DNA of 63,203 nucleotides, filler included. It is 6 parts of 6 records of this genome, joined end to end, with 100 filler letters (N's around TTAATTAATTAA, not from the genome) between each part and the next. Parts side by side here need not be neighbours in the genome. Positions count along the whole stretch, not along the records: positions 33,395 to 40,226 come from SRR31156797_13925; 5 more parts are not named here. One strand, given 5' to 3'. The position numbers were made by a program, and so were the translations under genes. Positions 12,864 to 63,203 of this stretch are shown piece after piece. Position 1 is the stretch's first letter; each line of letters begins with the position of its first letter. Below the pieces are notes generated by a model. It saw nothing but the letters and a program-made list of their open reading frames with translations, was not told the DNA's origin and ran no database searches.

Positions 12864-12963
12864 NNNNNNNNNNNNNNNNNNNNNNNNNNNNNNNNNNNNN
12901 NNNNNNNTTAATTAATTAANNNNNNNNNNNNNNNNNNNNNNNNNNNNNNNNNNNNNNNNNNNN
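12864..12963. other. Artificial contig linker
   Basis: 44 N + TTAATTAATTAA (stops in all six frames) + 44 N. Confidence 0.98.
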
Positions 12964-27255: not shown

Positions 27256-27355
27256 NNNNNNNNNNNNNNNNNNNNNNNNNNNNNNNNNNNNNNNNNNNNT
27301 TAATTAATTAANNNNNNNNNNNNNNNNNNNNNNNNNNNNNNNNNNNNNNNNNNNN
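27256..27355. other. Artificial contig linker
   Basis: 44 N + TTAATTAATTAA + 44 N. Confidence 0.98.
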
Positions 27356-33294: not shown

Positions 33295-33394
33295 NNNNNN
33301 NNNNNNNNNNNNNNNNNNNNNNNNNNNNNNNNNNNNNNTTAATTAATTAANNNNNNNNNNNNNNNNNNNNNNNNNNNNNNNNNNNNNNNNNNNN
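33295..33394. other. Artificial contig linker
   Basis: 44 N + TTAATTAATTAA + 44 N. Confidence 0.98.
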
Positions 33395-33421
33395 TCATGT
33401 CCTTCATGCTCTTCATGGTTT
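33395..33421. repeat. Partial arm of an interspersed palindromic repeat with 9-bp periodicity
   Basis: TCATG-TCCTTCATG-CTCTTCATG-GTT at the contig start; similar internal periodicity to 40082-40156. Confidence 0.45.
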
Positions 33422-33440
33422 TAAATATAAATCAAAGCCG

Positions 33441-34748
33441 TTATTCGCGCATGGCTTTGTCAACATTTTGAAGCAATGGATCTAAAAGATAGCTGATCAC
33501 CGTCCGGCTCTCGGTTGTGATATAGCAGGCAGCGGGCATACCAGGTGAAAGATAGGCGTTATGGGCTTTTAAATCCACTTCATCCACCTGTACATGGACC
33601 TCATAATAGGATATTTCCCCCCGGGAACTCTGCTCGCTCATTAAATCCGGGGAGACATAGGTCACCTTTCCCATGATGGGAGGAGTGGCTTTTCGCTGGA
33701 ATGCCGCCAACTGGACCTTGGTGGCCTGGCCCTTTTTAACACTGATAATATCCTGGGGCCGGACCTGGGCTTTAATCACCATACTCAAATCCTTGGGTAC
33801 AATTTCCAGCAAAGGCATCCCGGGCCGAATTACACCGCTGTCCTCGGAATGAACCTGCATATTAATGACAACCCCGCTTACCGGGGCCCTGACTTCAAGC
33901 CGGTGCTCGGCGTCAAGCATGGGCTTGATCTGATCTTTAAGATCGAAAATCAGGTCGGTCACCTCCCCGAGTTTTGACACGGCTACATCCCTGTACTCAT
34001 TCTCCATATCCACAATACGCAGTTTATATTCCTGGATCATCTGGGTGAACTGGGCAATATCCTGTTTTAATTTACCTTTTCTCCCCCGGTACTCGGAAAG
34101 ACTTCTTTCAAGCGTAAGAATATCAGTTTTCCCCATGTACTTTTCTGCCAGCAACGGACGCTTGCCGGCTAAATCCTCTTCAAGATTCAGGATAATTTCG
34201 CCCACACTTTTCAATTCCTCTTTGGCACCCTCAATCCTGTTTTTTGTCTGACTGATCTGGGAATGATGCAATTTTATTTTTCCCTGCAGATCAGAGCGCC
34301 GGGACACAAAAATATCCTTTTCAGTGGAAAGGATCTGGGCAATCTCCGGGTTGCCTTTTAATTCATCCAGGGCCTTGGGCCACAAGATTGAAGGTTTCAT
34401 CACCGCTTCGGCCCGAAGTCTTGCCGCCTCAGCTTCCTTAGCCCACAATCTTCCCTGGAGCAGTTCCACATTGGAACTGACCTGGGAGCTTTTCAGCTCA
34501 ATGAGGACATCTCCCTGGGTGACTTCGTCCCCCTCTTTTACAAAAATTTTATTAACGATCCCGCCTTCAAGGTGTTGAACCATCTTTCTTTCACCAAATA
34601 CATTCACCACACCCGGGGCAATAACCGCCCCCTGGAAGGGAAAATAAACGGACCACACCCCAAGGCCGCCGAAAAAAAGGATAATAACCAAAAGCCCTGC
34701 AATGATATACTTTGAAGGGTTTGTATTTAAAACTGGATCTTTTTTCAT
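33441..34748 (-). CDS. Type I secretion membrane fusion protein, HlyD/PrtE family
   Basis: N-terminal TM, VQHLEGGIV, VKEGDEV, long coiled coil, VRAPVSG, LSPGMP, RTVISYLLDP. Confidence 0.93.
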   Translation of the reverse strand: MKKDPVLNTNPSKYIIAGLLVIILFFGGLGVWSVYFPFQGAVIAPGVVNVFGERKMVQHLEGGIVNKIFVKEGDEVTQGDVLIELKSSQVSSNVELLQGRLWAKEAEAARLRAEAVMKPSILWPKALDELKGNPEIAQILSTEKDIFVSRRSDLQGKIKLHHSQISQTKNRIEGAKEELKSVGEIILNLEEDLAGKRPLLAEKYMGKTDILTLERSLSEYRGRKGKLKQDIAQFTQMIQEYKLRIVDMENEYRDVAVSKLGEVTDLIFDLKDQIKPMLDAEHRLEVRAPVSGVVINMQVHSEDSGVIRPGMPLLEIVPKDLSMVIKAQVRPQDIISVKKGQATKVQLAAFQRKATPPIMGKVTYVSPDLMSEQSSRGEISYYEVHVQVDEVDLKAHNAYLSPGMPAACYITTESRTVISYLLDPLLQNVDKAMRE

Positions 34749-34751
34749 TTT

Positions 34752-36422
34752 TTATACTCCTGCCGCCTGCTGGGACTGTTTATTGTTGGCAAGCTTAGTT
34801 AACACCTCTTTACCAGGTCCGTACATGGCAGTCTGCCCCTCCTTGATCACGAGAAGCTTGTCCATGTTCACAATCAGATTAGGCCGGTCCGAGACCACAA
34901 CGGTGGTCACATTTTCCTGCTTTAAATTTTTCAGAGCGGCAAGCACCACCCTGAGCCCCAGGTCATCTAAATGGGCATGGGGTTCGTCCAGAACCACAAA
35001 CTTTGGATCGCCATACAGGGCCCTGGCCAGGGAAATCAATTGCCGCTGGCCTGCCGCCAGATTTCTTCCGGATTGATCAATCCGGGTTTCATACCCCTGG
35101 GGAAGTTTTAAAATCATTTCATGGACCCCGGCCCGCTGGGCCGCGTTAACGATTTTTTCAGAATCTATTTGCTCAAACCTTGAAATATTTTCCGCCACGC
35201 TGCCGGGGAACAAATCAGGTGCCTGGGGCATATATCCAAGGTATTGGCCCAGCTCATCCTCCGGCCACTGGGAAAGTTGCGCCCCATCCAGTCTGACTTT
35301 TCCCGTCAAAGGCGGCCAGATCCCGAGCAGCACCTTGCAAAGACAAGTTTTCCCCGACGCACTGGGGCCGAAAACACCAAGGGTTTCACCCGGCTCAAGG
35401 GCCAGGGAGATATTATATAAAACCGTTTTGGCATCAAGGTTCAGGGTGACGGACTCTGCCGAAAACCGTCCCTCGGGGGCCGGCAGGGAGAGTTTGGGCT
35501 TGGATTCCTGGGTATTCACAAATTGTTTTAACCGCTTATAGGCCGCTGCCGCCTCAACAGCGGCTTTCATATTCAGCAGGCTGCGTTCATAGGGATAAAA
35601 AAGCCGTGTAATAATAATCACTCCGGCAAAAATGCCCCCCTGGGTAATTTCATGGGTGAAAAACACAAAAGCCCCCGCGGTGAACACAGCCGCCACCACC
35701 GCCACCTGAAGCAGGCGGATGACCGTTCCAAAGGCAGATTGGAACGCATCAGCCCCTGATCTTGCAGCCAGGCTCTTTTCATACCGGACCCTGTATTGTT
35801 CCATAACGGCGGAAAACATCCCCATCCCGGAAATCAAAGGGGCATGGCGCAGGCAATTGCCGGCAAAATCGATACCGGCCTGGAACATAACATCGGCCAC
35901 GGTGTAACGCTTTGTTTCGATTTTTTTAAGCAAAAGCTGAAACATGGTAATCAGAAAAACGCCGCCGATACTCACAAAGCCCATCATGGGATGTATAAGA
36001 TAAATGACTGCCAGGTACACCAGCACCCAGGGCAGCTCTAAAATATTTACAATATGGCCGCCGACAAAGGCATCCCTCAACAACTCAAGGTCCAAAAGCC
36101 CCCGGGTATACCCGGAACGCTTAATTGCCGTGGCATCCGCCTGCATGCTTTTAAATACATAGGGCATCATTTTTTGGGCCAGGTCATTGCCGGCCTGGCC
36201 CAGCATACGGGCACGGAAATAATCAATCAGGGCCATCATGACAAGGCTGATTACGATCCCGGTGGCCAAAGTAAAAAGGCTGGCCGTACTGAAGCTGAAC
36301 AGCACCTTGTCATAGATGACCATCATATAAATGGGCAGGGCAAGGTAGACCAGGTTCGCACAGAACCCGAAAATGCCTGCGAATATAAAATATTTTACCC
36401 ATAATCTACTTATCGTTTGCAT
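34752..36422 (-). CDS. Type I secretion ABC transporter, PrtD family (degenerate NBD)
   Basis: TMD + NBD; Walker A GPSASGKT, signature LAAGQ, Walker B VLDEP followed by HAHLD, H-switch VSDRP. Confidence 0.88.
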   Translation of the reverse strand: MQTISRLWVKYFIFAGIFGFCANLVYLALPIYMMVIYDKVLFSFSTASLFTLATGIVISLVMMALIDYFRARMLGQAGNDLAQKMMPYVFKSMQADATAIKRSGYTRGLLDLELLRDAFVGGHIVNILELPWVLVYLAVIYLIHPMMGFVSIGGVFLITMFQLLLKKIETKRYTVADVMFQAGIDFAGNCLRHAPLISGMGMFSAVMEQYRVRYEKSLAARSGADAFQSAFGTVIRLLQVAVVAAVFTAGAFVFFTHEITQGGIFAGVIIITRLFYPYERSLLNMKAAVEAAAAYKRLKQFVNTQESKPKLSLPAPEGRFSAESVTLNLDAKTVLYNISLALEPGETLGVFGPSASGKTCLCKVLLGIWPPLTGKVRLDGAQLSQWPEDELGQYLGYMPQAPDLFPGSVAENISRFEQIDSEKIVNAAQRAGVHEMILKLPQGYETRIDQSGRNLAAGQRQLISLARALYGDPKFVVLDEPHAHLDDLGLRVVLAALKNLKQENVTTVVVSDRPNLIVNMDKLLVIKEGQTAMYGPGKEVLTKLANNKQSQQAAGV

Positions 36423-38064
36423 TCGCGCCTCCCATTAACTGTCCTACAACCTCATCCCGGTCTCCGAACCGGACCTGTTGTCCTTGTTGGAGTACTAAGA
36501 CTTTATCCACGGTATATAAAAGGTTTGGCTTATGTGTAATCATAATTGTTGTGGCACCCATTTGTTTAAGGTTTTGTAATGCCTTGATCAAGGCTTGCTC
36601 CCCTGCCTCATCCAGGTTGGAATTGGGCTCATCCAGAATCACCAGTTTAGGGGTGCCGTAAAAGGCACGGGCAAGGCCCACTCTCTGGCGCTGTCCACCG
36701 GAAAGGCTTCGGCCCGCCTCCCCGATATCGGTATCATACCCTTGAGGAAAAGTTAAAATCATCTCATGGGCACAGGCGCTGTGTGCGGCCTGGAGTATCT
36801 TTTCCCCGTCGGCCTCCCCCATTCTGGCGATATTATCTTTTACACTGCCGGCAAACAGCTCCACATTCTGGGGCAGATACCCCAAATATTGCCCGAGATC
36901 ATCATTATCCAGCTCAAATACATTTTTGCCGTCCAGTTCCACCACGCCGCTGTCAGGTTCCCACATCCCTAAAATCATCCGGCACAATGTGGTTTTACCG
37001 GCACCATTGGGTCCGACCAGTCCCATAGCTTCCCCGGGCTTCAACCCAAAATCGATATGACTGAGCACCTGGGTTTCGTTTATGGAAAGGCTGATATCCG
37101 CCACATCCAGCGCCCCGGTTATTTCACCAAGGGTTTGCAACTTTTGTTCAGGCTTTTTTAACAACATGGCTAAATCATCATAAGCTTTTCTGGCTTCGGA
37201 TGTCTGCTTCCAGGCGGCAATGGCCTGATTCACCGGTGCCAGCGCCCTGCCCATTATAATTGACGCGGCAATGATAACGCCCGGGTTACTCTCGTTGGCC
37301 AGCACAAGGATCGCACCGACCCCATATATGATAACCTGCATGAGAATCCCAAAACTCTGGCTGATTGCCCCCAAGATATGTCTTACATTACCGGTTTTGT
37401 CGTGGATCTGAATTTCCTGGTCATTTATTTGGCAATACCTGGCACCCGCATTGCCGGTCATCCCCATGCATTGAAGCTCCCGGGCCGTTCTAAAGCTGGC
37501 TGCGACCCATTGCTGTCCTTGATTCTTCAACATTGTCGCCTCGACCGTACCTTTCTGAGTCAGGCCCGACTGCAGCAGCCCAATAACGAAAATGACAACC
37601 GCACCGCCTGTGGCTGTCAGGCCAAGCAGGGGATGCACAAGGTAAATCACCCACAGATAAATAAATATCCAGGGCAGATCAAAAAAAGCAAAAATGGAGT
37701 TGCCGCCCAGGTAATTTCGCAGGGTATTAATATCGTTGAGTCCCTTGGTGTACCGGGCGCTGTCGGCACGGCACAGATCCTTGAGCATTGCCTTGAGTAC
37801 CCGGCGGCTCAAAAGCTTGTCCAGCTTAATCCCAGCCCGTACAAGGAGGCGGGACCTGCAGAACTCAAGCAGTCCTAAAGTCACAAGAGCAGTTAAAGCA
37901 ATGGCCGTTATGGCATAAAGCGTGGGCATGCTGTAATTGGCCAGAACATTGCCGTAAACCGCCAGCATGTATAAAGAAAAAGTCAAATTCAGGGTGTTGA
38001 TAAATATGGAGAAAAACCCTGCAAACACAAAATATTTAAAACAGGAGCGCAGATACCTAATCAT
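36406..38064 (-). CDS. Type I secretion ABC transporter, PrtD family
   Basis: FFDLPW, ASIIMGRALAP, GPNGAGKT, GYLPQ, LSGGQRQ, LDEPNSNLD, ITHKP. Confidence 0.92.
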   Translation of the reverse strand: MIRYLRSCFKYFVFAGFFSIFINTLNLTFSLYMLAVYGNVLANYSMPTLYAITAIALTALVTLGLLEFCRSRLLVRAGIKLDKLLSRRVLKAMLKDLCRADSARYTKGLNDINTLRNYLGGNSIFAFFDLPWIFIYLWVIYLVHPLLGLTATGGAVVIFVIGLLQSGLTQKGTVEATMLKNQGQQWVAASFRTARELQCMGMTGNAGARYCQINDQEIQIHDKTGNVRHILGAISQSFGILMQVIIYGVGAILVLANESNPGVIIAASIIMGRALAPVNQAIAAWKQTSEARKAYDDLAMLLKKPEQKLQTLGEITGALDVADISLSINETQVLSHIDFGLKPGEAMGLVGPNGAGKTTLCRMILGMWEPDSGVVELDGKNVFELDNDDLGQYLGYLPQNVELFAGSVKDNIARMGEADGEKILQAAHSACAHEMILTFPQGYDTDIGEAGRSLSGGQRQRVGLARAFYGTPKLVILDEPNSNLDEAGEQALIKALQNLKQMGATTIMITHKPNLLYTVDKVLVLQQGQQVRFGDRDEVVGQLMGGANANDK

Positions 38065-39725
38065 TGGGCCACCCGTTTTGCGGATAGTTTTTCAAACACC
38101 GTATCCTTTGGGCCGAACATGGCAACCTGTCCGTTGTTCATGACCAGCATCTTGTCCATGGCGTGCAGCAGTTGGGGTTTATGGGAGACCATGATGCAGG
38201 TACAGCTCCGGCGCTCTTTTATGTCCACAAGTATATTGACCAGCAACTGCTCTCCTTGTTCATCTAGATTGGAGGTGGGTTCATCAAGAACAAGGAGCCG
38301 GGGCCGTCCATAAAGGGCCCTGGCAAGGCCGACCATCTGTTTTTGTCCGCCGGAGAGCCGAATTCCCTGGTCTCCTTCAAGCTGGGTTAACAGCCCTTCG
38401 GGCAAACTGTCTACCAGGCCTTGTATGCCGCAGGTTTGTACGGCCATATCAACCATATCCAGGTCCACGTGGCCAAGCCTTGCGATATTTTGGGCCACAG
38501 TTCCCGGGAACAACTCAATCTCCTGGGGCAGATACCCGATGTAGGGCCCGACTTCCTCCTTGTCCCAGGAAAAAATATCTTTCCCGTCCAGATAGACCTT
38601 GCCGCCAAAGGCAGGCAAAATACCCAGAAGCAGGCCGCACAAGGTCGTTTTGCCGGCGCCGTTGGGTCCGATAACCCCTAGAAGTTCTCCTGCAGGCAGT
38701 TCAAAGGAGACTGCTTTGAGCAATGATCGATTGGGGATTCGATAACCTGCACCGGCAGCACTGACGTGGCCTTTGGGTGCCGGCAGCGGCATGTCGGAAC
38801 TCTGTTTTTCAAGCATGGCTGAAAAGCCGCTTAACCGCAGGTAGGATTCCTTTGCCGCGGCTGTCATGCGCCAGGAGGACATGAACTGCATCAAAGGCGC
38901 AAATCCGCGCCCCATGATAATGGACCCTGCCACCATAAGCCCGACATCAAACCCGTCTTTTATGGCATAAATAGCGCCAAAACAATAAATTAAAACCTGA
39001 ACCACGTTCTGCAGGGGCTTGATCATGGACTGAATGGTGCCGGCATAATAACTTGCTTTTGTCTGATTTATCATCACCAGGTCATTTTTCTCAACAAATC
39101 TGTCGGAGATATCCCCGATCATCCCCATCCCATTTATCACTTCAGCATTTCTCATAAAAGAGTCCACAAAACGGTGGCTCTTGACATTCAATTGGCTAGC
39201 CTCTTTCATGCTCTTTCGGATAAGCACTTCCTGCAATATGCTCAATCCGACCATGACAAGGGCGCCTGACGTTGCAATAATGCCCAACACCGGGTGAAAC
39301 AGATAAACAAGGGCCAGGTAAAAAGGCGCCCATGGCGCATCAAACAGCGCATAGATAGCCGGCGTTGAAAAATAATTGCGCAGCACTTCAAGATCATTCA
39401 AGCCGGCCTGATAAGCGTGTTGACCGCCCAGCACGGATCCTTTAATCATGCCCGAATAAACTTGTTCCCTCAATCGAAGACTTAAATCCTGGCCTGCCAG
39501 GGCTAAAAGCCTGGACCGCAGATATGAAAAACACGCGAGAATCGCTACGGCCATAAAAGCCACCACCGTAATGTTTTTTAAAGACAGCGGGCTGTAGGAA
39601 ATAATAATATTGCCGTATATGGTGAACATATAAAAAGGAAAGGTTAATTGAAGAATATTCACAAAACAGCTTAAAAGCGCGGCAAAGGTGAAATACTTTT
39701 TCCATTTTTTTAAGAAGGCAGTCAT
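38061..39725 (-). CDS. Type I secretion ABC transporter, PrtD family
   Basis: LFDAPW, GSIIMGR, GPNGAGKT, GYLPQ, LSGGQKQ, LDEPTSNLD, VSHKP. Confidence 0.92.
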   Translation of the reverse strand: MTAFLKKWKKYFTFAALLSCFVNILQLTFPFYMFTIYGNIIISYSPLSLKNITVVAFMAVAILACFSYLRSRLLALAGQDLSLRLREQVYSGMIKGSVLGGQHAYQAGLNDLEVLRNYFSTPAIYALFDAPWAPFYLALVYLFHPVLGIIATSGALVMVGLSILQEVLIRKSMKEASQLNVKSHRFVDSFMRNAEVINGMGMIGDISDRFVEKNDLVMINQTKASYYAGTIQSMIKPLQNVVQVLIYCFGAIYAIKDGFDVGLMVAGSIIMGRGFAPLMQFMSSWRMTAAAKESYLRLSGFSAMLEKQSSDMPLPAPKGHVSAAGAGYRIPNRSLLKAVSFELPAGELLGVIGPNGAGKTTLCGLLLGILPAFGGKVYLDGKDIFSWDKEEVGPYIGYLPQEIELFPGTVAQNIARLGHVDLDMVDMAVQTCGIQGLVDSLPEGLLTQLEGDQGIRLSGGQKQMVGLARALYGRPRLLVLDEPTSNLDEQGEQLLVNILVDIKERRSCTCIMVSHKPQLLHAMDKMLVMNNGQVAMFGPKDTVFEKLSAKRVAQ

Positions 39726-39728
39726 GGG

Positions 39729-39953
39729 TTAAATTTGATTCCTGCCCCCATCAATACCCACACCCTCAAAACCGTTTGCATCAATCTCTTGACTTGTCCA
39801 CAGTGCAGGATCTTTTTCAGCAGATGCATCCTTTTTTGTTGTACCGGTGGATTCTAAAGAATCAAACAGGACATAGATACCCAACAACACCACAGGACCC
39901 AAAATGAGATAAAGCAACATAACATCAATGGCGATCAACGGTCCGGTACCCAC
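39729..39953 (-). CDS. Small single-TM protein at the head of the T1SS operon
   Basis: GTG at 39953 with AAGGAG RBS; 74 aa, MGTGPLIAIDVMLLYLILGPVVLLGIYVLFDS plus an acidic tail; stop lies 3 nt before the first ABC gene. Confidence 0.6.
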   Translation of the reverse strand: MGTGPLIAIDVMLLYLILGPVVLLGIYVLFDSLESTGTTKKDASAEKDPALWTSQEIDANGFEGVGIDGGRNQI

Positions 39954-40081
39954 GAGACTTTCTCCTTTTAGAAACAGCTTGAATCTGTTTTTTTGTGTCG
40001 TTCGGATCAAGCGAAAGAGTTTAATACAATTTTGCAAAAAGTCAATGATGACGGCGATCCAACCGCAATTCTAATTTTATT

Positions 40082-40156
40082 CCCGCACAAAGACACCAAG
40101 GCACAAAGTGTCATAAAACACAATATAATTTTTGTGCCTTGGTGTCTTTGTGCGGG
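40082..40156. repeat. Perfect 26-bp inverted repeat (REP/REPIN-like element)
   Basis: CCCGCACAAAGACACCAAGGCACAAA-N23-TTTGTGCCTTGGTGTCTTTGTGCGGG. Confidence 0.8.
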
Positions 40157-40226
40157 TTTTTTAACGAATTAAGATTCATATTTAAAATTGCCCGACCCAA
40201 AAACAACTTGCAATTTTCCCATGTTT

Positions 40227-40326
40227 NNNNNNNNNNNNNNNNNNNNNNNNNNNNNNNNNNNNNNNNNNNNTTAATTAATTAANNNNNNNNNNNNNNNNNN
40301 NNNNNNNNNNNNNNNNNNNNNNNNNN
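40227..40326. other. Artificial contig linker
   Basis: 44 N + TTAATTAATTAA + 44 N. Confidence 0.98.
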
Positions 40327-48531: not shown

Positions 48532-48631
48532 NNNNNNNNNNNNNNNNNNNNNNNNNNNNNNNNNNNNNNNNNNNNTTAATTAATTAANNNNNNNNNNNNN
48601 NNNNNNNNNNNNNNNNNNNNNNNNNNNNNNN
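48532..48631. other. Artificial contig linker
   Basis: 44 N + TTAATTAATTAA + 44 N. Confidence 0.98.
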
Positions 48632-48695
48632 CCTCATGGTAGTCTGATCCAGTACCTCATGATAGTCTGAGCAGTGTGCTCATGGTTTGTGAGTA
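48632..48695. repeat. Degenerating 23-bp tandem repeat at the contig edge
   Basis: cctcatggtagtctgatccagta / cctcatgatagtctgagcagtgt / gctcatggtttgtgagta. Confidence 0.6.
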
Positions 48696-48796
48696 AGTTA
48701 CTATAAGTGTTTTTTAGCAAATTCTACATACATTCATCATTCATGTATTGGTGCATAGGTGTAGTATGTAAAAAAGGTTTTATACTAAAGAATATA

Positions 48797-51700
48797 CTAT
48801 TTGTCGGCTTGCTGAAAGTATTCTCTGGGTGATTTACCATATTGGTTTTTGAAGGCTCTGCTAAAATAAGTTAAAGATGTAAACCCGGTTTTATAGGCAG
48901 CTTCGGAAAAACTACAGTTTTCTTTTGCTATAAATTCAATCGCTTTTTTAAGCCTTATTATTCTGATATATTCGGTTGTAGAACAATTTAATATACTTTT
49001 TAACTTGATATGTAAAAGTGAACGACTCACATGAAGTTTACCAATGATGAATTGTACATCCATTTCCGGATTGTCAAGGTTCTCTTCAATTAAGGTCGTT
49101 AACTCTTCAATAAATTCTTTATCCCTGCTCGAAGTTGTTACTTCTGTTGGTGCAATATCCGGGTTTGAAGAAAAACGCTGTATGGCATTTTTACGGGTAT
49201 TGATAATATTTAAAATATTCTGCTTTAATATTTGAGGTAAAAATGGTTTCTCTAAATAAATATCAGCACCATGTTTTAAGCCCTCATATATATTATCCAA
49301 ACCAGTTTTTGCTGTTAATAAAACAATTGGAATATGTGATGTTTCAATCGCTGATTTTAATATTTGGGTAAGTTCGAGTCCATCCATTTCGGGCATCATC
49401 ACATCACTAATGATTAAATCAAAATTATTTGTCTTAACCAGTTCCAATGCCTCTTTTCCATTTTGTGCTGTTTTAATATTGTACTCAATTAAAGATTCTG
49501 ATAAGAATTCCAGTAGCTCAATATTATCTTCAACTATTAAAATAGGAACCCTGTCTTTGTCGTCGATAATAATTTGATCTTTTTCTGTTTGTTCATCTAT
49601 TGCAGATAAGGTGTTTTCAGTTATACTAAATTCTTCCTGTATCTCGTGTGATATTTCTGTTTCATCAAAAAACTCTTCGGTACAAGGTAGCCATATCTTT
49701 ATTAATGTTCCTTCATTGGGTTCACTTTCAATAGACAGTTTACCTTTATGCATATTTACCAGGTTATTGACATATGATAAGCCTATACCAGTTCCATTGT
49801 TTACTTTTTTTGCTTTAGAAGATTGATAAAAACGATTTAAAACTTTATTCAAATCATATTTAGAAATTCCAGGACCACTATCCTTAACTGAAATATTTAA
49901 ATAATCGGTAAATTCGTCGTTATTCTCAACAGAAACATTTAAGTGAACGAAATCATTAGGATTGCAATATTTAAATGAGTTGGATAAGAGGTTGAATATG
50001 ATTTTTTCAATTACAGCTTTATTGATCCAAACTTCGGTATTAACCTGATCATAGGTTGCGGTAAAGTTAATATTGCGATGTTCAGCAATACATTTAAAAG
50101 CTTCTTTAATATTTTTTACAAAAGATAAATCAACCTGCTTGTACACACGAAAATTGACAGATTCCTTATCGATACGTCTAAATTCTAATAATTCGCCCAA
50201 TAAATTATTAAGTCGGCTTACATTAATATAAATACGGCTTAATTTGTTTTGAGTGTTTTGGCTTAGCTTTTCATTCTCCAATAAACTGGATAGAGGTCCT
50301 AAGATAAGCGATAAAGGAGTTTTAATTTCATGGGAGATATTAGTAAAAAACTCCAGTTTAAAATTATTAATTTCTTCGTTGTGCATACGTTCCTGTCTTT
50401 CAAGAGCGAGGTCTGATTTAGAACGTTGCATTTTTACACTGATAAAGTTTAATACAAAAACAATGGCCAGAAATATAATAGCATAAGCAAAAAATGCATA
50501 AGGAGTGAGCCAAACTGGTGGTTTTATATGAATGTGTATTTGCTTAATGCCACTTTGGTTTACCCACGCATCATTGGAAGCTTTTACATAAAAAGTATAA
50601 TTCCCGGGATCGAGATTGGTATAGGTAGCTGAATTTTGATTTCCTACATAATTAAAATCATTATCAAAGCCATCCATTTTATAGGCATATGAAATTTTAC
50701 CGTTGTTTGCGTAATCAATTGATGAGTATTGAATGGTAAATACATTTTCATTATGCTCAAGTTCAATTTCTGTAGCATTAACAATGGAAGTTTTAATTGG
50801 TGCATCATTATCCGGTGTAACTAACTTATTAAAAAGCAGAAAGTGAGTAAGCTGTACATTTGCCGGACTAACTTTATAGTATTGATCTGTATTTATAGAA
50901 ACCATTCCCTCGTTTCCACCAAAATATATAATGCCATTGGATGATTTAAATGCTGCTCGGTAGTTAAACTGATTAAAAGGCACTCCTGCATTAGAATCGT
51001 AATGAATAAAAGAATTATCTTCCGGGTTGAGATGGATGATGCCGTTATTAGTGCTTACCCAAATCGTTTGATCATTAGCTGATTCTATTGCAAAAATTCG
51101 ATTAGTTGGGAAGTCTGTTTCTTTGTTAAAAAAATGTATTGTTTCATTATTTTCATTATATCTAATAAGCCCCCTGTTGTTAGAAGATAACCATAAATAA
51201 CCTTTAGAATCGCAATGCACTTGACCCAAACCTCCTATGGCAGATAGCTTTTCATGCTTTTTTAGTTGACCCGAAATGGTGTTATATGAATATACATTGT
51301 CGTAGGAACAAATCCATAAAGTCTTATTTTTCCATGCAAAAGAAACAATTACTTCATTGCTTATTATCTCTTCAAAAAATCGGCTAAATTTTTTAGTGTT
51401 TTTATCATAAACCGAAATTCCACTATCTGTACCAATATAAATAAGGTTGTTTTGCTGTGTAAATGCATATACAAAATCGGAGGCTAATAGGGGGTAATCT
51501 TTTGCTTGAAAACAAGTTATTTGATTGTTTTTTGTGTTTAAAACATTAATACCTCCCGAGTAGGTTGCAATCCATAAGTGTGTTTGATCGACTAATAGTA
51601 AATCATGTACGTTTTTATAGGATAGGTTACTATTAATTAGTTGTTCGGTTACTTTTTCAATATGACCAGTTTTTGAGGATATTTTATTTACACCCATATC

Positions 51701-52813
51701 TTCAGTACCAATCCAAATATTATGATTTTTATCTTCGTAAAAACAACTGACCACTTTGCCTCCCAAATGATCTTCACTGGTACCGGGTTCCCAATAAGTA
51801 AACTTAGTTGATTTATTGCTCCATAAGTTTATTCCACCAAAGTAAGTTCCCAGCCAAATATTACCATCTTTATCTGTAAATGAATTGTATATGGGGTTGG
51901 TGTTTAGTCCTTTGGGTTTTCTAATGTCGTACTCGAAACAACGGAATTCATTGTTTGATTCATCCCAAATGCATAATCCGTTTTCTGTTCCAATCCAAGC
52001 CCTGTTTTGGTTATCCAAGGTTACGCAATGAACCATTTTATGAGGCAGTTTATAATGCGTATCTGTGGAAAAGTAGGTTTTTCGGCACGATGGAAAATTA
52101 TATTTAACTAATCCATTAGCGTATAATCCAATCCAAATATTATTGTGCTTATCTACTTTAAGAAAGGTAACCTCAGAGGTTTTATAAACATCTGTTGCAA
52201 CTACGCTTATTTTTTTTGTTTTAAAGTGATATAGTAGAACTCTGCCTAAAGAAGTATATGCAACAATAACATTGTCATTAGCATCTATTTTAAGGTAATC
52301 CTCAGTTTTTGCTTGCTTATCGAATTTTTTAAATAAATCAGATAACTCTACTTTCTTATCAATAATGTTAAGAGTGTAAATCGAATTATCCTGAATATAG
52401 GCAATGGTGTTATTCGGAAGCGTAGTTAAACATTCTTTTTTTAGATTACTAAAAAGTGGTGTATATGGTTTAAAGCATTCCTGATCATAATCAAAATAAT
52501 AGTGGAAATTTTGCATTGATTCTAAAAGAATGATAGAATCATTAATGCAACTTAACAATTGAGGTTCAATATTAATAGGATTTCCTAAAACATCGTATGC
52601 CGGAAAGTTAACGAAGTGGTTGCCTTCAAATCTGCTAATATCTTCACGGGTTGCAATCCAGATAAAACCCAATTTATCCTGCTGTATTCCTTTTACATAG
52701 GATGACGATAAACCTTCTTTGTTAGTGAAATGAGTAAATTCCGGAGACGAAATTTGAGCAAATATAGATGCACTGATTAAAGAAATAAATATAATGGTAA
52801 AAATGTTTTTCAT
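48797..52813 (-). CDS. Hybrid two-component system (beta-propeller sensor, Y_Y_Y, HisKA, HATPase, REC, AraC)
   Basis: Repeated IWIGT/WLGT blades, YTNLDPGNY, FFTNISHEIKTPL, GTGIGL, ISDVMMPEMDG, YFSRAFK. Confidence 0.95.
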   Translation of the reverse strand: MKNIFTIIFISLISASIFAQISSPEFTHFTNKEGLSSSYVKGIQQDKLGFIWIATREDISRFEGNHFVNFPAYDVLGNPINIEPQLLSCINDSIILLESMQNFHYYFDYDQECFKPYTPLFSNLKKECLTTLPNNTIAYIQDNSIYTLNIIDKKVELSDLFKKFDKQAKTEDYLKIDANDNVIVAYTSLGRVLLYHFKTKKISVVATDVYKTSEVTFLKVDKHNNIWIGLYANGLVKYNFPSCRKTYFSTDTHYKLPHKMVHCVTLDNQNRAWIGTENGLCIWDESNNEFRCFEYDIRKPKGLNTNPIYNSFTDKDGNIWLGTYFGGINLWSNKSTKFTYWEPGTSEDHLGGKVVSCFYEDKNHNIWIGTEDMGVNKISSKTGHIEKVTEQLINSNLSYKNVHDLLLVDQTHLWIATYSGGINVLNTKNNQITCFQAKDYPLLASDFVYAFTQQNNLIYIGTDSGISVYDKNTKKFSRFFEEIISNEVIVSFAWKNKTLWICSYDNVYSYNTISGQLKKHEKLSAIGGLGQVHCDSKGYLWLSSNNRGLIRYNENNETIHFFNKETDFPTNRIFAIESANDQTIWVSTNNGIIHLNPEDNSFIHYDSNAGVPFNQFNYRAAFKSSNGIIYFGGNEGMVSINTDQYYKVSPANVQLTHFLLFNKLVTPDNDAPIKTSIVNATEIELEHNENVFTIQYSSIDYANNGKISYAYKMDGFDNDFNYVGNQNSATYTNLDPGNYTFYVKASNDAWVNQSGIKQIHIHIKPPVWLTPYAFFAYAIIFLAIVFVLNFISVKMQRSKSDLALERQERMHNEEINNFKLEFFTNISHEIKTPLSLILGPLSSLLENEKLSQNTQNKLSRIYINVSRLNNLLGELLEFRRIDKESVNFRVYKQVDLSFVKNIKEAFKCIAEHRNINFTATYDQVNTEVWINKAVIEKIIFNLLSNSFKYCNPNDFVHLNVSVENNDEFTDYLNISVKDSGPGISKYDLNKVLNRFYQSSKAKKVNNGTGIGLSYVNNLVNMHKGKLSIESEPNEGTLIKIWLPCTEEFFDETEISHEIQEEFSITENTLSAIDEQTEKDQIIIDDKDRVPILIVEDNIELLEFLSESLIEYNIKTAQNGKEALELVKTNNFDLIISDVMMPEMDGLELTQILKSAIETSHIPIVLLTAKTGLDNIYEGLKHGADIYLEKPFLPQILKQNILNIINTRKNAIQRFSSNPDIAPTEVTTSSRDKEFIEELTTLIEENLDNPEMDVQFIIGKLHVSRSLLHIKLKSILNCSTTEYIRIIRLKKAIEFIAKENCSFSEAAYKTGFTSLTYFSRAFKNQYGKSPREYFQQADK

Positions 52814-53258
52814 ACTCAACAATGTCCCCTTTAAATCAGCATTACATCAACATGCTGAATTCAACTGTTTTCCTTTTAAAAATAATGCAATTTACAAGTG
52901 AATTCACTTCAATTCACTATAAATTAAGAGTGTAAAATACAAAAATCTTCCGAGTTAGAAACAATAATATATTCGGTGTATATCGATAAGTTTTATAAAG
53001 GTAATTCTGTATGTGTTTGTAATATAGTTTATTGAGACGATGAAGTTAAATAATGTTATAATCATGATTAAACATAGAGCATAAAAAATAAAACATATGT
53101 ACAAGTTAATTTTCTTAAATAAACGGACATTTGATTGAAGTTAAAATGGACTGAATAAGTCCGGTATTTTTATTTGAAAAATCAATTTACGACTTTCTTT
53201 AAATGAGGGTTTAGTATGGCGATTTTTACCAATTTTCAATTAATTAATGTAGTTCAAT

Positions 53259-55235
53259 ATGAAGAGATCAATAGGCTTTTTAGCCTTATTCTTATGTGCA
53301 GTAAATTTTATCAATGCTGCAAAGCAATTAAAGCTTACTTCTCCCGATAGTAAAACCATCATAAACTTGAAATTAGATAATGGTTTAAGTTATTCTTTAA
53401 GCTATCAAAACAAACTTATAATTGATTATTCCCGAATTGGTTTGATCATTGAAAATGAAGCAACAACTATAAATAGTCTGAAAATAGTTAATGAAGTAGA
53501 AAAGAAAGAGCATATTGTTTCCCCTTTTTATAGATTTAGATCTTTTGATGTGGTTTATAAACAGTATGATATACGTTGCAATGCAAAACTAACAGTGCAA
53601 TTTCGTTTGTTCGAAAATGGGGGAGTTTCTTATCGCTTTAAAAGTAATTTTAAAGATAGTCTGACTATCAAAAATGAACTGGCCGAATTTAATTTCACCA
53701 AAGATTACACAGCTTATACAGCGCATACCACTGGTAAAAAAGATCGCTTTGCCATGGCTTTTCAAAATTCGTATCAGGTAAACCCATTATCTCAAACAGA
53801 TACCAGCCTGGTGTTTTTACCAGCTACAGTTGATGTTGAAGGAGGTTGGAAAGTGACCATTACCGAAGCTGATTTAGAAAGCTATCCGGGTATGTTTTTA
53901 CAGATAAATAAAGGTAAGAAAGGATTTGACGGAGTATATGCTAATTATCCTGCTAAAGTAGATTATTACCCATGGAGAAGTCAAGAGTATGTTACGGGAA
54001 GAGCTTCATCTATTGCAAAAATAAAAGGGAAAAGAGAGTTCCCATGGAGAATTATTTCAATCTCAGAAAAGGATACAGAAATGCCTGTCAATAACTTGGT
54101 TTATGCATTGGCTTCATCAAACAGAATTGGAGATTACAAATGGGTAAAGCCAGGAAAATCTGCATGGGAATGGTGGAACGATTGGGGCGTTTGGGATGTC
54201 GATTTTGAAGCAGGTATAAATATGAAAACCTATAAGTATTATATTGATTTTGCATCTAAATATGGTTTGGAATATGTTATTCTGGATGAGGGTTGGTATG
54301 ATGGTAAAGTAGGAGATATGATGCAGGTAATTCCCGACTTGGATTTGCCAGAGTTATTGGCTTATGCTAAGAGTAAGAATGTAGGTGTTATTTTATGGAC
54401 TGTTTTTAATGTTTTAGATAAGCAGTTAAAAGAGGCATGTCAACACTATGCTCAAATGGGAGTAAAGGGGTTTAAAGTGGATTTTTTAGATCGTGATGAT
54501 CAAAAAGCAGTTGAAATGGTTTACCGTATCGCAGAAGAAACAGCAAAACATCACTTGGTTTTGGATTTGCATGGATTTTATAAACCTACAGGATTAAACA
54601 GGACATACCCACATATTGTCAATTTTGAAAGTGTGTTTGGAATGGAGGAAATGAAATGGAGTTCGCCGGAAGTAGATATGCCTTTGTATGATGTTACTTT
54701 TCCATTTATCCGTTTAATGGCTGGTCCGGTCGATTATACGCCGGGAGCCATGAGAAATGCAACAAAAAAGGATTTTCAGCCTATATACAGTAATCCATTA
54801 AGTCAGGGAACCCGCTGTCATCAATTGGCTACATATATTGTATTTGATTCACCATTTACAATGTTGGCCGATTCGCCTGTATTATATGATCAGGAATCGG
54901 AATATACCAGCTTTTTGTCAGCCTTGCCTGTTGTGTTTGAAGATACAAAGATACTGGATGGAAAATTAGGAGAGTATATTGTTACAGCCAGAAGAAAGGA
55001 CAAAGATTGGTATATTGGAGGTATGACCAATTGGAATGCCAGGGAACTGGAAGTTGATTTTTCTTTTCTGGAGAAAGACAGTAATTATAAACTTACACTA
55101 TATAAGGATGGCGTAAATGCAAACAAACAAGCTTCAGATTATGATGTGGAGACTATAGTCGTTAACAAAGAATCAAAAATAAAAATCCCAATGGCATCAG
55201 GTGGAGGTTTTGTTATGAAAGTTGAAATACTGTAA
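53259..55235 (+). CDS. Glycoside hydrolase family 97 (retaining type; alpha-galactosidase/beta-L-arabinopyranosidase-like)
   Basis: WVKPGKSAWEWW, YIDFAS, LDEGW, GFKVDF, RTYP, GPVDYTPG, GTRCHQLA. Confidence 0.92.
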   Translation: MKRSIGFLALFLCAVNFINAAKQLKLTSPDSKTIINLKLDNGLSYSLSYQNKLIIDYSRIGLIIENEATTINSLKIVNEVEKKEHIVSPFYRFRSFDVVYKQYDIRCNAKLTVQFRLFENGGVSYRFKSNFKDSLTIKNELAEFNFTKDYTAYTAHTTGKKDRFAMAFQNSYQVNPLSQTDTSLVFLPATVDVEGGWKVTITEADLESYPGMFLQINKGKKGFDGVYANYPAKVDYYPWRSQEYVTGRASSIAKIKGKREFPWRIISISEKDTEMPVNNLVYALASSNRIGDYKWVKPGKSAWEWWNDWGVWDVDFEAGINMKTYKYYIDFASKYGLEYVILDEGWYDGKVGDMMQVIPDLDLPELLAYAKSKNVGVILWTVFNVLDKQLKEACQHYAQMGVKGFKVDFLDRDDQKAVEMVYRIAEETAKHHLVLDLHGFYKPTGLNRTYPHIVNFESVFGMEEMKWSSPEVDMPLYDVTFPFIRLMAGPVDYTPGAMRNATKKDFQPIYSNPLSQGTRCHQLATYIVFDSPFTMLADSPVLYDQESEYTSFLSALPVVFEDTKILDGKLGEYIVTARRKDKDWYIGGMTNWNARELEVDFSFLEKDSNYKLTLYKDGVNANKQASDYDVETIVVNKESKIKIPMASGGGFVMKVEIL

Positions 55236-55459
55236 AGCTTAATTTTTTTAATACAAGTCAATGAAAAAAGCGGTTAAAGCTGATTTTGGGATTTGTATTG
55301 ACTGTTTTTGCTCTAAATTTTGAGGGGTGAAATGTAAAATAGTAGGATTTGAAATATTTCTATTTGAAAAAATTCAAGTCTTCCCCGAACGATTCATTTA
55401 CTTTTGTTTAAAGTAAAGAGCAAAAATTACTAATTATCAATTTATTTAAATTATAGAGT

Positions 55460-56851
55460 ATGTTTAGTAAAGGTACATATATAAAGCGCAGAGAGGAATT
55501 AGCTAAAAAAGTAGGAAAAGGTTTGGTTTTGCTTCTGGGAAATAACGAAAGTCCCATGAATTACGAGGACAATACCTACACCTATCGTCAGGATGGTACT
55601 TTTTTATATTTTGTAGGTTTACAATTACCTTCTATAGCGGTGGTTTTTGATATTGATGAGAACAAGGAAATTTTGTTTGGTGATGATTTGTCAATGGATA
55701 TGATTGTTTGGATGGGAAACCAACCATCTATGCGCGAAAATGCAGAAAAAGCAGGTATTCAAGAGGTAAAACCGTACAGCGAACTAGCAACTTATATTGC
55801 TAAAGCAAATCAAAAAAAGCAGGAAATTCATATTCTTCCTCCATATCGTCATGATCACATTTTAGAGCTAAGTGCATTGTTGGATGTGTCTCCAAAGCAG
55901 CTTCAAAAATTTGTTTCTGAAAAGTTAATTCAATCGGTTGTTGCACTTCGCGAAATAAAAAGTGAGGAGGAAATTGCAGAGATTGAAAAGGCGGTTAATG
56001 TTTCAGTGGATATGCATGTGGCAGCTATGCAGGTAGCACAAGCAGGAATGACAGAAGCAGTTGTTGCTGCTGAAATTCAGAAAGTAGCTCAGGCTTCCGG
56101 AGGTGATATTTCCTTTCCTATTATCGCCACTATTAATGGGCATATTCTCCATAACCATTATCATGGTAATGTTTTAAAGCAAGGAGATATGGTTTTGGTT
56201 GATGCCGGGGCGCAAACAGCTATGGGATATTGTGGTGATTTATCATCTACATTTCCGGTTTCTCCAACATTTACATCTATTCAAAAAGAGATTTATGCTT
56301 TAAGTTTAGAAGCCCACAATAAAGCCATTGATATGTTAAAGCCTGGTCTTGCATTTAAAGAAGCTCATTTTGAAGCATGCCGAACCATTATTGAAGGTAT
56401 GAAAGGGATGGGCTTAATGAAAGGTAATACAGAGGATGCTTTGGCAGCCGGAGCACACGCTTTATTTTTTCCGTGTGGATTAGGACATATGATGGGATTG
56501 GATGTACATGATATGGAAAACCTGGGCGAAAAATGGGTTGGTTATAATGGTGTAGAAAAAAGCACGCAGTTTGGATTAAAATCATTGCGTTTGGCTAAGG
56601 AATTAGAACCGGGTCATGTCTTAACCATAGAACCTGGAATATATTTTATTCCTGAGTTGATAAAAATGTGGAAAGCCGAAAATACGAACGCTGAATTTTT
56701 AAATTTTGATCAAATAGAGAAGTTCAAGGATTTTGGTGGTATTCGTAATGAAGAGGACTTCTTAATTACCAAAGATGGAGCAAGGTTGTTGGGTAAGCCA
56801 TGTCCAAAATCAATTGAAGATGTTGAAAAGTACAGGGCTTCAGCTAAATAG
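55460..56851 (+). CDS. pepP: Xaa-Pro aminopeptidase (M24B)
   Basis: YRQD, IKSEEEI, LHN, VDAGA, YCGD, GLGHMMGLDVHD, TIEPGIYF, GGIRNEED. Confidence 0.92.
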   Translation: MFSKGTYIKRREELAKKVGKGLVLLLGNNESPMNYEDNTYTYRQDGTFLYFVGLQLPSIAVVFDIDENKEILFGDDLSMDMIVWMGNQPSMRENAEKAGIQEVKPYSELATYIAKANQKKQEIHILPPYRHDHILELSALLDVSPKQLQKFVSEKLIQSVVALREIKSEEEIAEIEKAVNVSVDMHVAAMQVAQAGMTEAVVAAEIQKVAQASGGDISFPIIATINGHILHNHYHGNVLKQGDMVLVDAGAQTAMGYCGDLSSTFPVSPTFTSIQKEIYALSLEAHNKAIDMLKPGLAFKEAHFEACRTIIEGMKGMGLMKGNTEDALAAGAHALFFPCGLGHMMGLDVHDMENLGEKWVGYNGVEKSTQFGLKSLRLAKELEPGHVLTIEPGIYFIPELIKMWKAENTNAEFLNFDQIEKFKDFGGIRNEEDFLITKDGARLLGKPCPKSIEDVEKYRASAK

Positions 56852-56863
56852 TCAACTATAAAA

Positions 56864-59137: not shown

Positions 59138-59155
59138 AAATTAATTTATAAAGCT

Positions 59156-60535
59156 ATGTATGTAAATAGAGTATTTGTATTTCTATTGTTTGTCTCTTGC
59201 GGCATTCTTCCTTATTCTTGTGTCGAAAAAGGAACAAAATCCACAACTGTTTCATCACTTCCAGAAAAGGAGTTATTGTTGCCAGATACAATTTGGATGG
59301 TACCTGATAATAATAATTTTAATATCGATACCTGTGAATATGCTTACTCACGGTCTTTACAATCAGAAAATCTAGCTTTATTCTGGCATCGTGATTATGG
59401 TGTAGATCCAATGATGAATCCTGATACAATACAACGTTTTGATCCGAAAAGAGCCATATTGGAATGTGAACGTTTTTATAAGTATTATGTAGATGAGCTA
59501 AAATTAGTTACTAAAGGAGCTTCTTTAACTGATAAATACAAGCTGCTCATATTTGTAATAGGAGGAGATGAGCATACGGCATTTGGAGGAGGAGCTGATG
59601 AAAAAGTAGGTGTGCTCTGGACTCCAGCGGTAAGAATTAGCCAGGAACCTTTTGGTGCTTTGGCACATGAAATGGGACATAGTTTTCAGTACTTAAGTGA
59701 AATGGATTATGGAACAGGTCCCAAAGGACCTATTATGGAGATGTCGGCACAGTACATGCTTTGGCAGGTATATCCGGAATGGATGACCTTTGAAAATTAT
59801 CATCTGGAGGCCTTTTTAAAGAAAACCCATTTTGCCTTTCTACATCCGCAAAATATGTATCATTCTCCTTATGTATTGGAGTATTGGTCCCAAAAGCATG
59901 GAAAAGATTTCTTTGGTAGGTTAAGTCATGAAACAAAAGAGGGAGAAGATCCTGTAACTACTTATAAAAGAATAACTGGCATTACGCAAGAACAATTTAA
60001 CGATGAGATATTTGATGCTTGCAGAAGGTTTGTTACCTGGGATTTACCAAGGGTAGAAGAAGTGGCTAAGCCTTATCGAAATATGCATCGAACTAAGTTA
60101 ATTGATGAAGGAAATAATAGGTATAGGGTAGATTCTTTAAACTGCCCTCAGAATTATGGATACAACGGAATTCAGCTAGAAGTACCGGAAGCAGGAACTC
60201 AAATTGAAGTAGATTTTGAAGGGGAAGCTAATGCTGAAGGTTACTCAAGCGTAAATGTAGATAAGGCAGGTTGGCGATATGGCTTCGTGGCTTATTTAAA
60301 AAATGGTAAACGCGTTTACAGTAAGATGTATAAGGACAAAAGTGGAAAAGTATCTTTTAAAGTTCCGGAAGAAACAACTTTTTTATGGTTCGTTATTAGT
60401 GGTGCACCTACTGAGCATTGGCCAATAGTGTTTAACTGGGGAGCACCCCAAACGGATAATCATAAAGAAGAACAATGGGCTTATAAATTTCAGTTATTTG
60501 GAACTAGTATTGTAAAAAGCTCGTTACCATCATAA
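59156..60535 (+). CDS. Putative lipoprotein with an HEXXH zinc motif (DUF6055-like)
   Basis: N-terminal hydrophobic segment with Cys; AHEMGHSFQ and downstream IMEMSAQ; PQNYGYN. Confidence 0.65.
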   Translation: MYVNRVFVFLLFVSCGILPYSCVEKGTKSTTVSSLPEKELLLPDTIWMVPDNNNFNIDTCEYAYSRSLQSENLALFWHRDYGVDPMMNPDTIQRFDPKRAILECERFYKYYVDELKLVTKGASLTDKYKLLIFVIGGDEHTAFGGGADEKVGVLWTPAVRISQEPFGALAHEMGHSFQYLSEMDYGTGPKGPIMEMSAQYMLWQVYPEWMTFENYHLEAFLKKTHFAFLHPQNMYHSPYVLEYWSQKHGKDFFGRLSHETKEGEDPVTTYKRITGITQEQFNDEIFDACRRFVTWDLPRVEEVAKPYRNMHRTKLIDEGNNRYRVDSLNCPQNYGYNGIQLEVPEAGTQIEVDFEGEANAEGYSSVNVDKAGWRYGFVAYLKNGKRVYSKMYKDKSGKVSFKVPEETTFLWFVISGAPTEHWPIVFNWGAPQTDNHKEEQWAYKFQLFGTSIVKSSLPS

Positions 60536-60651
60536 TAAAATTGCATATTAAACATTTGTATGTATTAATTCATCATTTGATGTAGTGCTTTTTTAAGTTT
60601 GTATGCAATTTTGAACATGTATTTAACGTGTAAATTTTAAATTAAAAAGTA

Positions 60652-63051: not shown

Positions 63052-63091
63052 TTTTCTACTAATAAAATATTTTCTATCATTATCATATCTG

Positions 63092-63138
63092 ATCTCCTTT
63101 TCGTTCGTAGTTATTATGATTCGAAAAGGAGATTTTTA
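63092..63138 (+). terminator. Intrinsic terminator after the GH127 gene
   Basis: ATCTCCTTTTCG-N18-CGAAAAGGAGAT followed by a T-run. Confidence 0.7.
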
Positions 63139-63203
63139 TTGCATTTATTAAAGGTTTATTCCTCTCAATTAATCCCGGATTATGTATTAGAACATCGTTA
63201 TGA

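Follow-up and report, generated by a model that had tools for sequence, protein, structure and literature searches.

Why should one secretion operon carry three ABC exporter genes beside a single adaptor gene? The question is raised by an operon in the stretch of DNA analysed here (63,203 nucleotides, filler included; hereafter the window), where the contig SRR31156797_13925 encodes three diverged ATP-binding cassette (ABC) half-transporters related to PrtD, which we call ABC1, ABC2 and ABC3, together with a HlyD-family periplasmic adaptor and a small membrane protein. The five genes are co-inherited in Desulfobacter-like sulfate reducers, and the answer that we tentatively prefer, at a little under an even chance, is that all three paralogs would work in one machine with the composition (ABC1)2(ABC2)2(ABC3)2(HlyD)6.

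Organization of the operon

All five genes lie on the minus strand. ABC1 (38061-39725, 554 aa) is a PrtD-type half-transporter in which a transmembrane domain is joined to a nucleotide-binding domain (NBD), and ABC2 (36406-38064, 552 aa) is of the same type; both have canonical ATPase motifs. ABC3 (34752-36422, 556 aa) is a PrtD-like half-transporter with degenerate ATPase motifs, and HlyD (33441-34748, 435 aa) is the adaptor. According to these coordinates, ABC1 and ABC2 overlap by 4 nt, ABC2 and ABC3 overlap by 17 nt, and a gap of 3 nt separates ABC3 from HlyD. A first-pass annotation had described the same three full-length PrtD-like genes and one hlyD gene: its coordinates and lengths were exact, its overlaps and gap follow from the coordinates, and the aligned N-termini, strong divergence (33-40% identity) and missing C39 domain that it listed agree with our alignment and Pfam results. 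Its gene list was incomplete, as it overlooked a fifth gene of the operon at 39729-39953, which encodes 74 aa from a GTG start behind a AAAGGAGAA ribosome-binding site.

The window had also been taken as one contig, whereas five 100-bp linkers (12864-12963, 27256-27355, 33295-33394, 40227-40326 and 48532-48631) show that it consists of six. The artificial linker at 33295-33394 (44 N, TTAATTAATTAA and a further 44 N) forms one end of the operon's contig and that at 40227-40326 forms the other; the operon stands alone on the fourth piece (33395-40226), an N-free contig of 6832 bp. A 6832-base contig of the run from which this DNA probably stems is identical to the piece, a match that adds no independent evidence. 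As the window is made of joined contigs, genes across a linker are not real neighbours of the operon. Indeed, none of 16 flanking window ORFs matched any ORF of 25 related loci by BLAST, because the flanks belong to other contigs. No TolC-type gene and no RTX-repeat or other secreted cargo gene was found on the 6.8-kb operon contig, and there was no match to the TolC-type outer-membrane family (OEP) among the window ORFs scanned, which lie on other contigs. The earlier remark that this contig lacks TolC and the substrate is therefore true but trivial, since the contig holds the operon only.

The best NCBIfam match of all three transporters is TIGR01842, the PrtD subfamily, with 526.3 bits for ABC1, 600.8 bits for ABC2 and 492.2 bits for ABC3. 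The curated cut-off of this model is 510.15 bits, so that ABC1 and ABC2 are above it and ABC3 is just under; the third gene of the triples in related genomes is mostly under it too (415-518 bits, among the genomes listed). The adaptor scores 335 bits against TIGR01843, for which the cut-off is 209. Pfam recognizes ABC_tran in ABC1, ABC2 and ABC3 and ABC_membrane in ABC1 and ABC2, and the same scan detected no C39 peptidase domain in any of the three. Furthermore, ABC3 aligns over its full length with the solved PrtD homologue in PDB entry 5l22 (E 2.3e-95) and is distant from HlyB (E 1e-43). To judge from its predicted products, the operon encodes the inner-membrane components of a dedicated type I secretion system (T1SS).

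Pairwise identities between the window paralogs are 40, 33 and 36%, and between their membrane domains 25-34%. A cross-paralog profile of the membrane domains, computed in search of a common HlyD-binding surface, shows the greatest sharing at TM1 and the FD.PW region, which may reflect family-wide motifs only. Single PrtD proteins of the same family share 47-53% identity with ABC2, 42-46% with ABC1 and 36-41% with ABC3, and by this measure ABC2 appears to be the paralog nearest to the single-copy prtD genes.

Conservation of the triple module

The nearest public genome contig is labelled as a Desulfobacter sp. metagenome-assembled genome (MAG) and encodes a protein with 86% identity to ABC3. 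A sample of 101 genomes of that genome's family was searched with TIGR01842, the best 12 candidates per genome being scored. A match at E 1e-90 or better was present in 56 of the 101, and 25 carry three adjacent PrtD-like genes on one contig (coordinates read by hand). Fragments of the arrangement occur in three further genomes (G001, G043 and G072). In G072 there are six PrtD-like matches on four short contigs (C101, C261, C199 and C145), possibly two triple modules. One of the 25 triples, in G044, has its first gene cut by a contig end and was excluded from the comparison of loci; counts given below out of 25 orthologues refer to the remaining 24 relatives and the window.

The order ABC1-ABC2-ABC3 is found in 24/24 loci, with each position best matching the same position in the window. 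ABC3 is immediately followed by HlyD in 23 of the 24 (the last is cut by a contig end), no locus has lost one of the paralogs, and several triple loci sit on megabase-length contigs. An independent contig of 5.2 kb from a microbial-mat metagenome (X3), about 94% identical, carries HlyD, ABC3 and part of ABC2. The triple arrangement is neither strain-specific nor a misassembly. Both possibilities had been named in advance as grounds for abandoning it, together with a synteny survey as the means of checking, and what that survey returned was the same order in 24 other genomes, while in the window the genes lie on a contig free of N. One RNA library (X18) has contigs on 30/30 bins of the stretch at 90-99% likeness, which is not proof of transcription.

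How does the triple module relate to the ordinary, single PrtD gene? Counting matches above the cut-off among the best 12 candidates per genome, 24 genomes have the triple only, 14 have a single PrtD only, and one has both. Triple module and single canonical PrtD are thus almost mutually exclusive among the sampled family genomes, a distribution that supports the replacement of one gene by three. In a phylum-wide sample of 401 genomes, with the best three candidates per genome, the tandem triple appeared in one (G277). Relatives of ABC3 come, by source annotation, from Desulfobacter postgatei, Desulfobacula toluolica, Desulfotignum and Desulfobulbus MAGs, and the database name of all three genes is merely 'type I secretion system permease/ATPase'.

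The three genes also have separate and parallel histories. A maximum-likelihood tree of 94 proteins (26 triples, nine single PrtDs, two variant ABCs and five LssB-like outgroup rows) was built as a quick IQ-TREE run under a PMSF mixture model with SH-aLRT support. Each paralog is set apart from the rest of the tree by a single branch, with support of 96 for ABC1, 79 for ABC2 and 100 for ABC3, which supports the ancient separate clades that the first-pass annotation had proposed to test by phylogeny. The ABC3 clade has a long stem, branching at the base could not be resolved, and L017, L045 and L047 were flagged as long branches. The same inner subclades recur within the ABC1, ABC2 and ABC3 clades, and therefore the three genes have been inherited together and began to co-diverge at a time that predates the split of these genomes.

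Pairwise dN/dS among five close genomes was 0.11-0.14 for ABC1, 0.14-0.16 for ABC2, 0.14-0.20 for ABC3, 0.09-0.12 for HlyD and 0.23-0.70 for the small ORF. All three transporters are under purifying selection, and the value for ABC3 means that this gene is maintained and not decaying. Mean identity within the clade is 45% for the membrane domain of ABC3 versus 58-59% for those of ABC1 and ABC2; the NBD of ABC3, at 59%, is as conserved as the NBDs of the other paralogs.

Degenerate ATPase motifs of ABC3

What most clearly sets ABC3 apart is the state of its catalytic motifs. In the window copy, Walker A is intact, the signature reads LAAGQ, and Asp stands in place of the H-loop His (VVSDRP). 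Among the 25 orthologues of each paralog, the signature is (L/I)SGGQ in all copies of ABC1 and ABC2 and is non-canonical in 22 of the ABC3 copies (LAAGQ, LSAGQ, LSCSQ and others). The H-loop His is likewise present in every ABC1 and ABC2, and is replaced in ABC3 by Asp (22 copies) or Glu (three copies). The Walker B Asp-Glu pair is complete in 25/25 copies of ABC1 and of ABC2, and its Glu is lost in 5/25 of ABC3. Walker A is kept in all three. Consequently, the full catalytic set (Walker A, Walker B Asp-Glu, LSGGQ and H-loop His) is held by ABC1 and ABC2 in 25/25 orthologues, and ABC3 fails to show it. The copy of the module in the outlying genome G277 (locus L045) has the same pattern across the paralogs, with a similarly degenerate ABC3.

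For HlyB, the substitution H662A is described as leaving less than 0.1% of ATPase activity while ATP-bound dimers still form (PMC9751043), and H662 as working both in cis and in trans (PMC8277102). ABC3 is catalytically degenerate by its motifs and, by analogy, would bind ATP with little or no hydrolysis. The first-pass annotation had spoken of a three-ATPase T1SS; a dedicated module with three ABC proteins is indeed present, but the degenerate motifs of the third were overlooked. A curious feature of ABC3 is a His directly after Walker B (DEPH) in 22/25 copies, as counted from motif strings, with a second His in the D-loop (xHLD) in 13/25; ABC1, ABC2 and the single PrtDs have T, N or D at these positions. 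It is pure speculation that one of these, as a relocated or trans-acting His, makes up for the missing H-loop residue.

A small fifth gene upstream of ABC1

With a hidden Markov model (HMM) built from relatives, the small gene was located immediately upstream of ABC1, on the same strand, in 25/25 triple loci, at gaps of -64 to +60 nt. The same HMM found it in none of six single-PrtD loci, where flanks of only about 1 kb were available. The ribosome-binding site and start of the small ORF are kept in the two closest loci. Across loci the protein has 62-74 aa and one predicted transmembrane helix. A short N-terminus leads into the hydrophobic helix (LIAIDV.LLY..LGP.VL...YVLFD), which is followed by a Lys-rich linker that varies between loci and by a conserved KDPALW(T/S).(E/D)(E/D)I motif. 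Because the Lys-rich segment comes after the helix, the C-terminus is predicted to be inside.

The protein has no Pfam domain or NCBIfam family, the window copy has no NCBIfam match, and its 32 database homologues are all unnamed or annotated 'hypothetical protein'. A weak NCBIfam match to a cytochrome-oxidase subunit model in 3/25 small proteins (E up to 1; best 2.4e-4) was taken as a chance likeness of membrane helices. An ESM Atlas look-up gave best scores of 0.85 and nothing usable. A complex prediction for two copies of the small protein with two copies of ABC1 residues 1-320 scored 0.00; it was run without controls and counts neither way. A KKDP string shared by the N-terminus of the window HlyD and the small protein's KDPALW motif was considered and dropped, as it is not conserved in the other HlyD orthologues.

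In the phylum sample the small-gene profile matches 4/401 genomes, three of them convincingly. One is G277, which has the complete five-gene module. In G366 (L047, G366:C59, 3980-11994) the small gene and an ABC1-like gene come first, and three ORFs intervene before a single canonical ABC and HlyD; G208 (L046, G208:C15, 5318-7402) has the small gene with a 269-aa ABC1-like fragment and a HlyD-like gene. In the tree, the upstream ABC of G366 is sister to the ABC1 clade (support 100). From these variants and this placement it follows that the small gene travels with the ABC1 lineage.

The adaptor may be relevant to the role of the small protein. A comparison of orthologue N-termini indicates that HlyD has about 13 aa of cytoplasmic N-terminus ahead of its membrane helix, with a conserved LNTNP.KY motif. 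In E. coli HlyD, the cytoplasmic N-terminus is much longer. That the small protein supplies a cytoplasmic function missing from the short HlyD N-terminus is speculation.

A possible machine with three kinds of ABC dimer

The natural template for such an operon is the E. coli HlyB/HlyD complex, the structure of which is reportedly due to Zhao, Lee and Chen in 2022 and is known to us through citing papers. PDB entries 7sgr and 8dck each list six HlyB chains. As described in the citing papers, the inner-membrane complex contains three HlyB dimers and six HlyD; ATP is hydrolysed by all three dimers, and one dimer alone is transport-competent (PMC11026475, PMC9751043). The premise of the first-pass annotation that a classical T1SS uses one homodimeric ABC is therefore outdated, and the '3x2 assembly with HlyD' that it put forward for modelling becomes the natural expectation and not an exotic one. 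In view of the solved three-dimer complex, three co-inherited paralogs with one HlyD gene are most simply explained as one machine: three genes at two copies each would give six ABC positions, beside the single HlyD gene.

In the machine that we favour, a HlyD hexamer would be surrounded by three ABC dimers, one homodimer of each paralog. ABC1 and ABC2 would drive it by hydrolysing ATP, whereas ABC3, which retains the nucleotide-binding fold and Walker A, would occupy a specialised non-catalytic position as a channel or a regulator. The small protein would probably be an extra membrane subunit tied to ABC1. The fuller version, in which every ABC-dimer position has its own gene, the ABC3 position works without ATP hydrolysis and the small protein is an added subunit, demands more, and we regard it as possible but somewhat doubtful.

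The choice of homodimers comes from the distribution of the defects. Both ATP sites of an ABC dimer are composite: one chain contributes Walker A, Walker B and the H-loop, and its partner contributes the signature. Homodimers of ABC3 are favoured because its signature and H-loop defects share one chain, and only a homodimer joins both in the same sites; if ABC3 pairs with itself, the sites of ABC1 and ABC2 stay intact. This is an argument from pattern.

Several points weigh against the proposed machine. Its stoichiometry and pairing are derived from gene counts and motifs, which suggest rather than fix them. The three-dimer architecture is a solved structure for HlyB only, and the C39-like domain, which there makes the main contacts with HlyD (PMC11026475), is absent here. 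The Asp or Glu at the H-loop of ABC3 might still support some hydrolysis. The membrane domain of ABC3, the least conserved of the three, fits substrate-specific divergence equally as well as a structural role. Furthermore, G366 and G208 carry the small gene with fewer or split ABCs, so that three are not obligatory everywhere, and the distribution counts are limited to the best 12 candidates per genome in the family and the best three in the phylum.

If the proposed machine is real, it would matter for the study of type I secretion in general. In HlyB, with its three identical dimers, mutation cannot reveal what each position does; a three-paralog operon would allow such a test, and 'channel' and 'allosteric engine' roles would become separable by simple genetics, which is impossible in the one-gene HlyB system. 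In addition, the T1SS parts list gains an undescribed small membrane protein, and a structured three-gene family emerges from behind a uniform database annotation. A search of open-access papers and bioRxiv, with subscription journals and supplements outside its range, turned up the three-dimer structure of HlyB and the two-ABC MARTX system, and nothing on a T1SS with three paralogs, on a third PrtD that is degenerate or on the small gene; the Desulfotignum genome paper mentions type I secretion in passing only, in a count of TolC.

Other ways to read the operon

Could the three proteins instead pair with one another? The strongest competitor keeps one machine and makes its dimers mixed, for example with an ABC1/ABC2 engine and ABC3 in mixed dimers, or with 1-2, 2-3 and 3-1 pairs. 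We consider this unlikely, while taking it seriously, since heterodimeric ABC exporters are usually recognizable by adjacent half-transporter genes with coupled translation, and strict co-inheritance fits mixed dimers as well as it fits homodimers. It would extend the two-ABC idea of the MARTX toxin systems of Vibrio, an atypical T1SS in which more than one ABC gene is likewise found in the operon. RtxB and RtxE of those systems are HlyB-like with an N-terminal domain. MARTX secretion is described as needing both RtxB and RtxE, two ABCs whose genes flank that of the adaptor RtxD in a B-D-E order (PMC3034196), unlike the three PrtD-type ABCs that here lie upstream of the adaptor. Neither a third, degenerate paralog nor a small gene upstream is mentioned in the available part of that description.

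Mixed dimers are weakly disfavoured by the motif pattern. ABC3 carries both defects, so that any heterodimer containing it would have two impaired sites and no consensus site. In exporters of the TM287/288 type, the changes of the degenerate site are split between the two chains, a pattern that is not seen here, where ABC1 and ABC2 are fully canonical. TM287/288, TmrAB and BmrCD do resemble our operon in having paralogous half-transporter genes side by side, one with a non-canonical NBD, but each is described as having one degenerate site (PMC8277102). They are also two-gene systems, whereas three genes and a HlyD adaptor are present here and both changes are on ABC3. This, too, is reasoning from pattern.

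A second alternative is that the ABCs are cargo-specific transporters, each forming its own complex with a shared HlyD and TolC and each exporting a different class of substrate. The strongly diverged membrane domains (25-34% identity between paralogs) are what such a division of labour would lead one to expect, and several kinds of candidate cargo are encoded at the relatives' loci, including RTX proteins, subtilases, an M10 protease and DUF4214 proteins. However, ABC3 lacks the H-loop His in 25/25 orthologues, and given the activity of below 0.1% described for HlyB H662A (PMC9751043), it is unlikely to be the sole motor of any export route. Moreover, no paralog has been lost in any of 24 loci although the neighbouring candidate cargo genes vary. 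We therefore hold separate cargo-specific complexes to be rather improbable.

Finally, that ABC3 is a decaying duplicate, or the arrangement an assembly artefact or strain-specific duplication, might be read from its score below the TIGR01842 cut-off (492 vs 510), its degenerate motifs and the concatenated contigs of the window, but is scarcely credible when ABC3 is intact and full length in 25/25 loci with dN/dS of 0.14-0.20, the four genes lie within one N-free contig, 24 other genomes (several with megabase-length contigs) have the same order, and the independent metagenome contig X3 keeps HlyD-ABC3-ABC2 at about 94% identity.

Comparison with other type I systems

How does a machine of three paralogs differ from what is known? 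It is nearest to the PrtD/PrtE-type (protease or lipase type) T1SS represented by 5l22, with which it shares TIGR01842 ABCs of about 550 aa without a C39 or C39-like domain and a TIGR01843 adaptor. It differs in having three diverged paralogs, with ABC3 degenerate, where that type has one ABC gene, and in having an extra gene for a small membrane protein and no TolC-type gene in the operon. With E. coli HlyB/HlyD it shares an ABC exporter and a HlyD adaptor, and the unequal three dimers and six HlyD of that complex served as the template of our model; there, one gene with a C39-like domain is described (PMC11026475), whereas our operon has three genes without this domain and is known from sequence alone.

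The sap system of Campylobacter fetus, with one ABC gene, is a further point of reference. The likeness to this S-layer T1SS (sapCDEF) is a SapC-family gene (PF07277) beside the operon in 5/10 relatives' loci; unlike it, our operon contig has no SapC gene.

Genomic neighbourhood and minor features

Hints of the cargo come from ten relatives' loci, whose flanks of about 7.5 kb were scanned against Pfam. A GT4 glycosyltransferase gene was found in seven of these, the SapC-family gene in five, RTX-repeat proteins in four, a TolC-type OEP in three, and a carbamoyltransferase, SxtJ and GDSL set in two. In the latter two loci, a GDSL hydrolase/carbamoyltransferase/SxtJ-like set directly follows HlyD (L011 2415-5721 and L020 13918-17367). 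Together with GT4 and SapC, this set suggests a connection with the modifying of some polymer or protein at the surface. Further neighbours in relatives are subtilases, DUF4214 proteins and, in L016, an M10 protease whose gene immediately precedes the small gene, and the candidate cargo genes beside the operon differ between loci. These neighbourhoods fit a T1SS that exports proteins and is connected with the biogenesis of surface or matrix, and they suggest RTX-repeat proteins or secreted proteases as possible cargo, with TolC and cargo encoded elsewhere. The first-pass annotation had proposed very large adhesins or S-layer proteins as substrates; the SapC and RTX-repeat genes of the relatives hint at this, but no such gene lies on the operon contig itself.

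Upstream of the small ORF, a consensus scan found a sigma-70-like promoter candidate on the minus strand (40018-40045; TTGACT, 16 nt, TAAACT). The promoter-like block CATCATTGACTTTTTG.AAAATTGTATTA.ACT is kept in the two closest loci, which leaves it a candidate by sequence. Further upstream lies a perfect inverted repeat (40082-40156) with 26-nt arms and a 23-nt spacer. Part of this repeat also matches another contig of the same sequencing run; it may be a repeated element and the cause of the nearby contig end.

The last piece of the window (48632-63203) has a GC content of about 30-37%, versus about 45-61% elsewhere in the window, and looks like DNA of a different organism, possibly through bin contamination. 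Its genes encode a hybrid two-component regulator (Reg_prop/Y_Y_Y/AraC), GH97, aminopeptidase P, DPP-IV, a DUF6055 protein and GH127.

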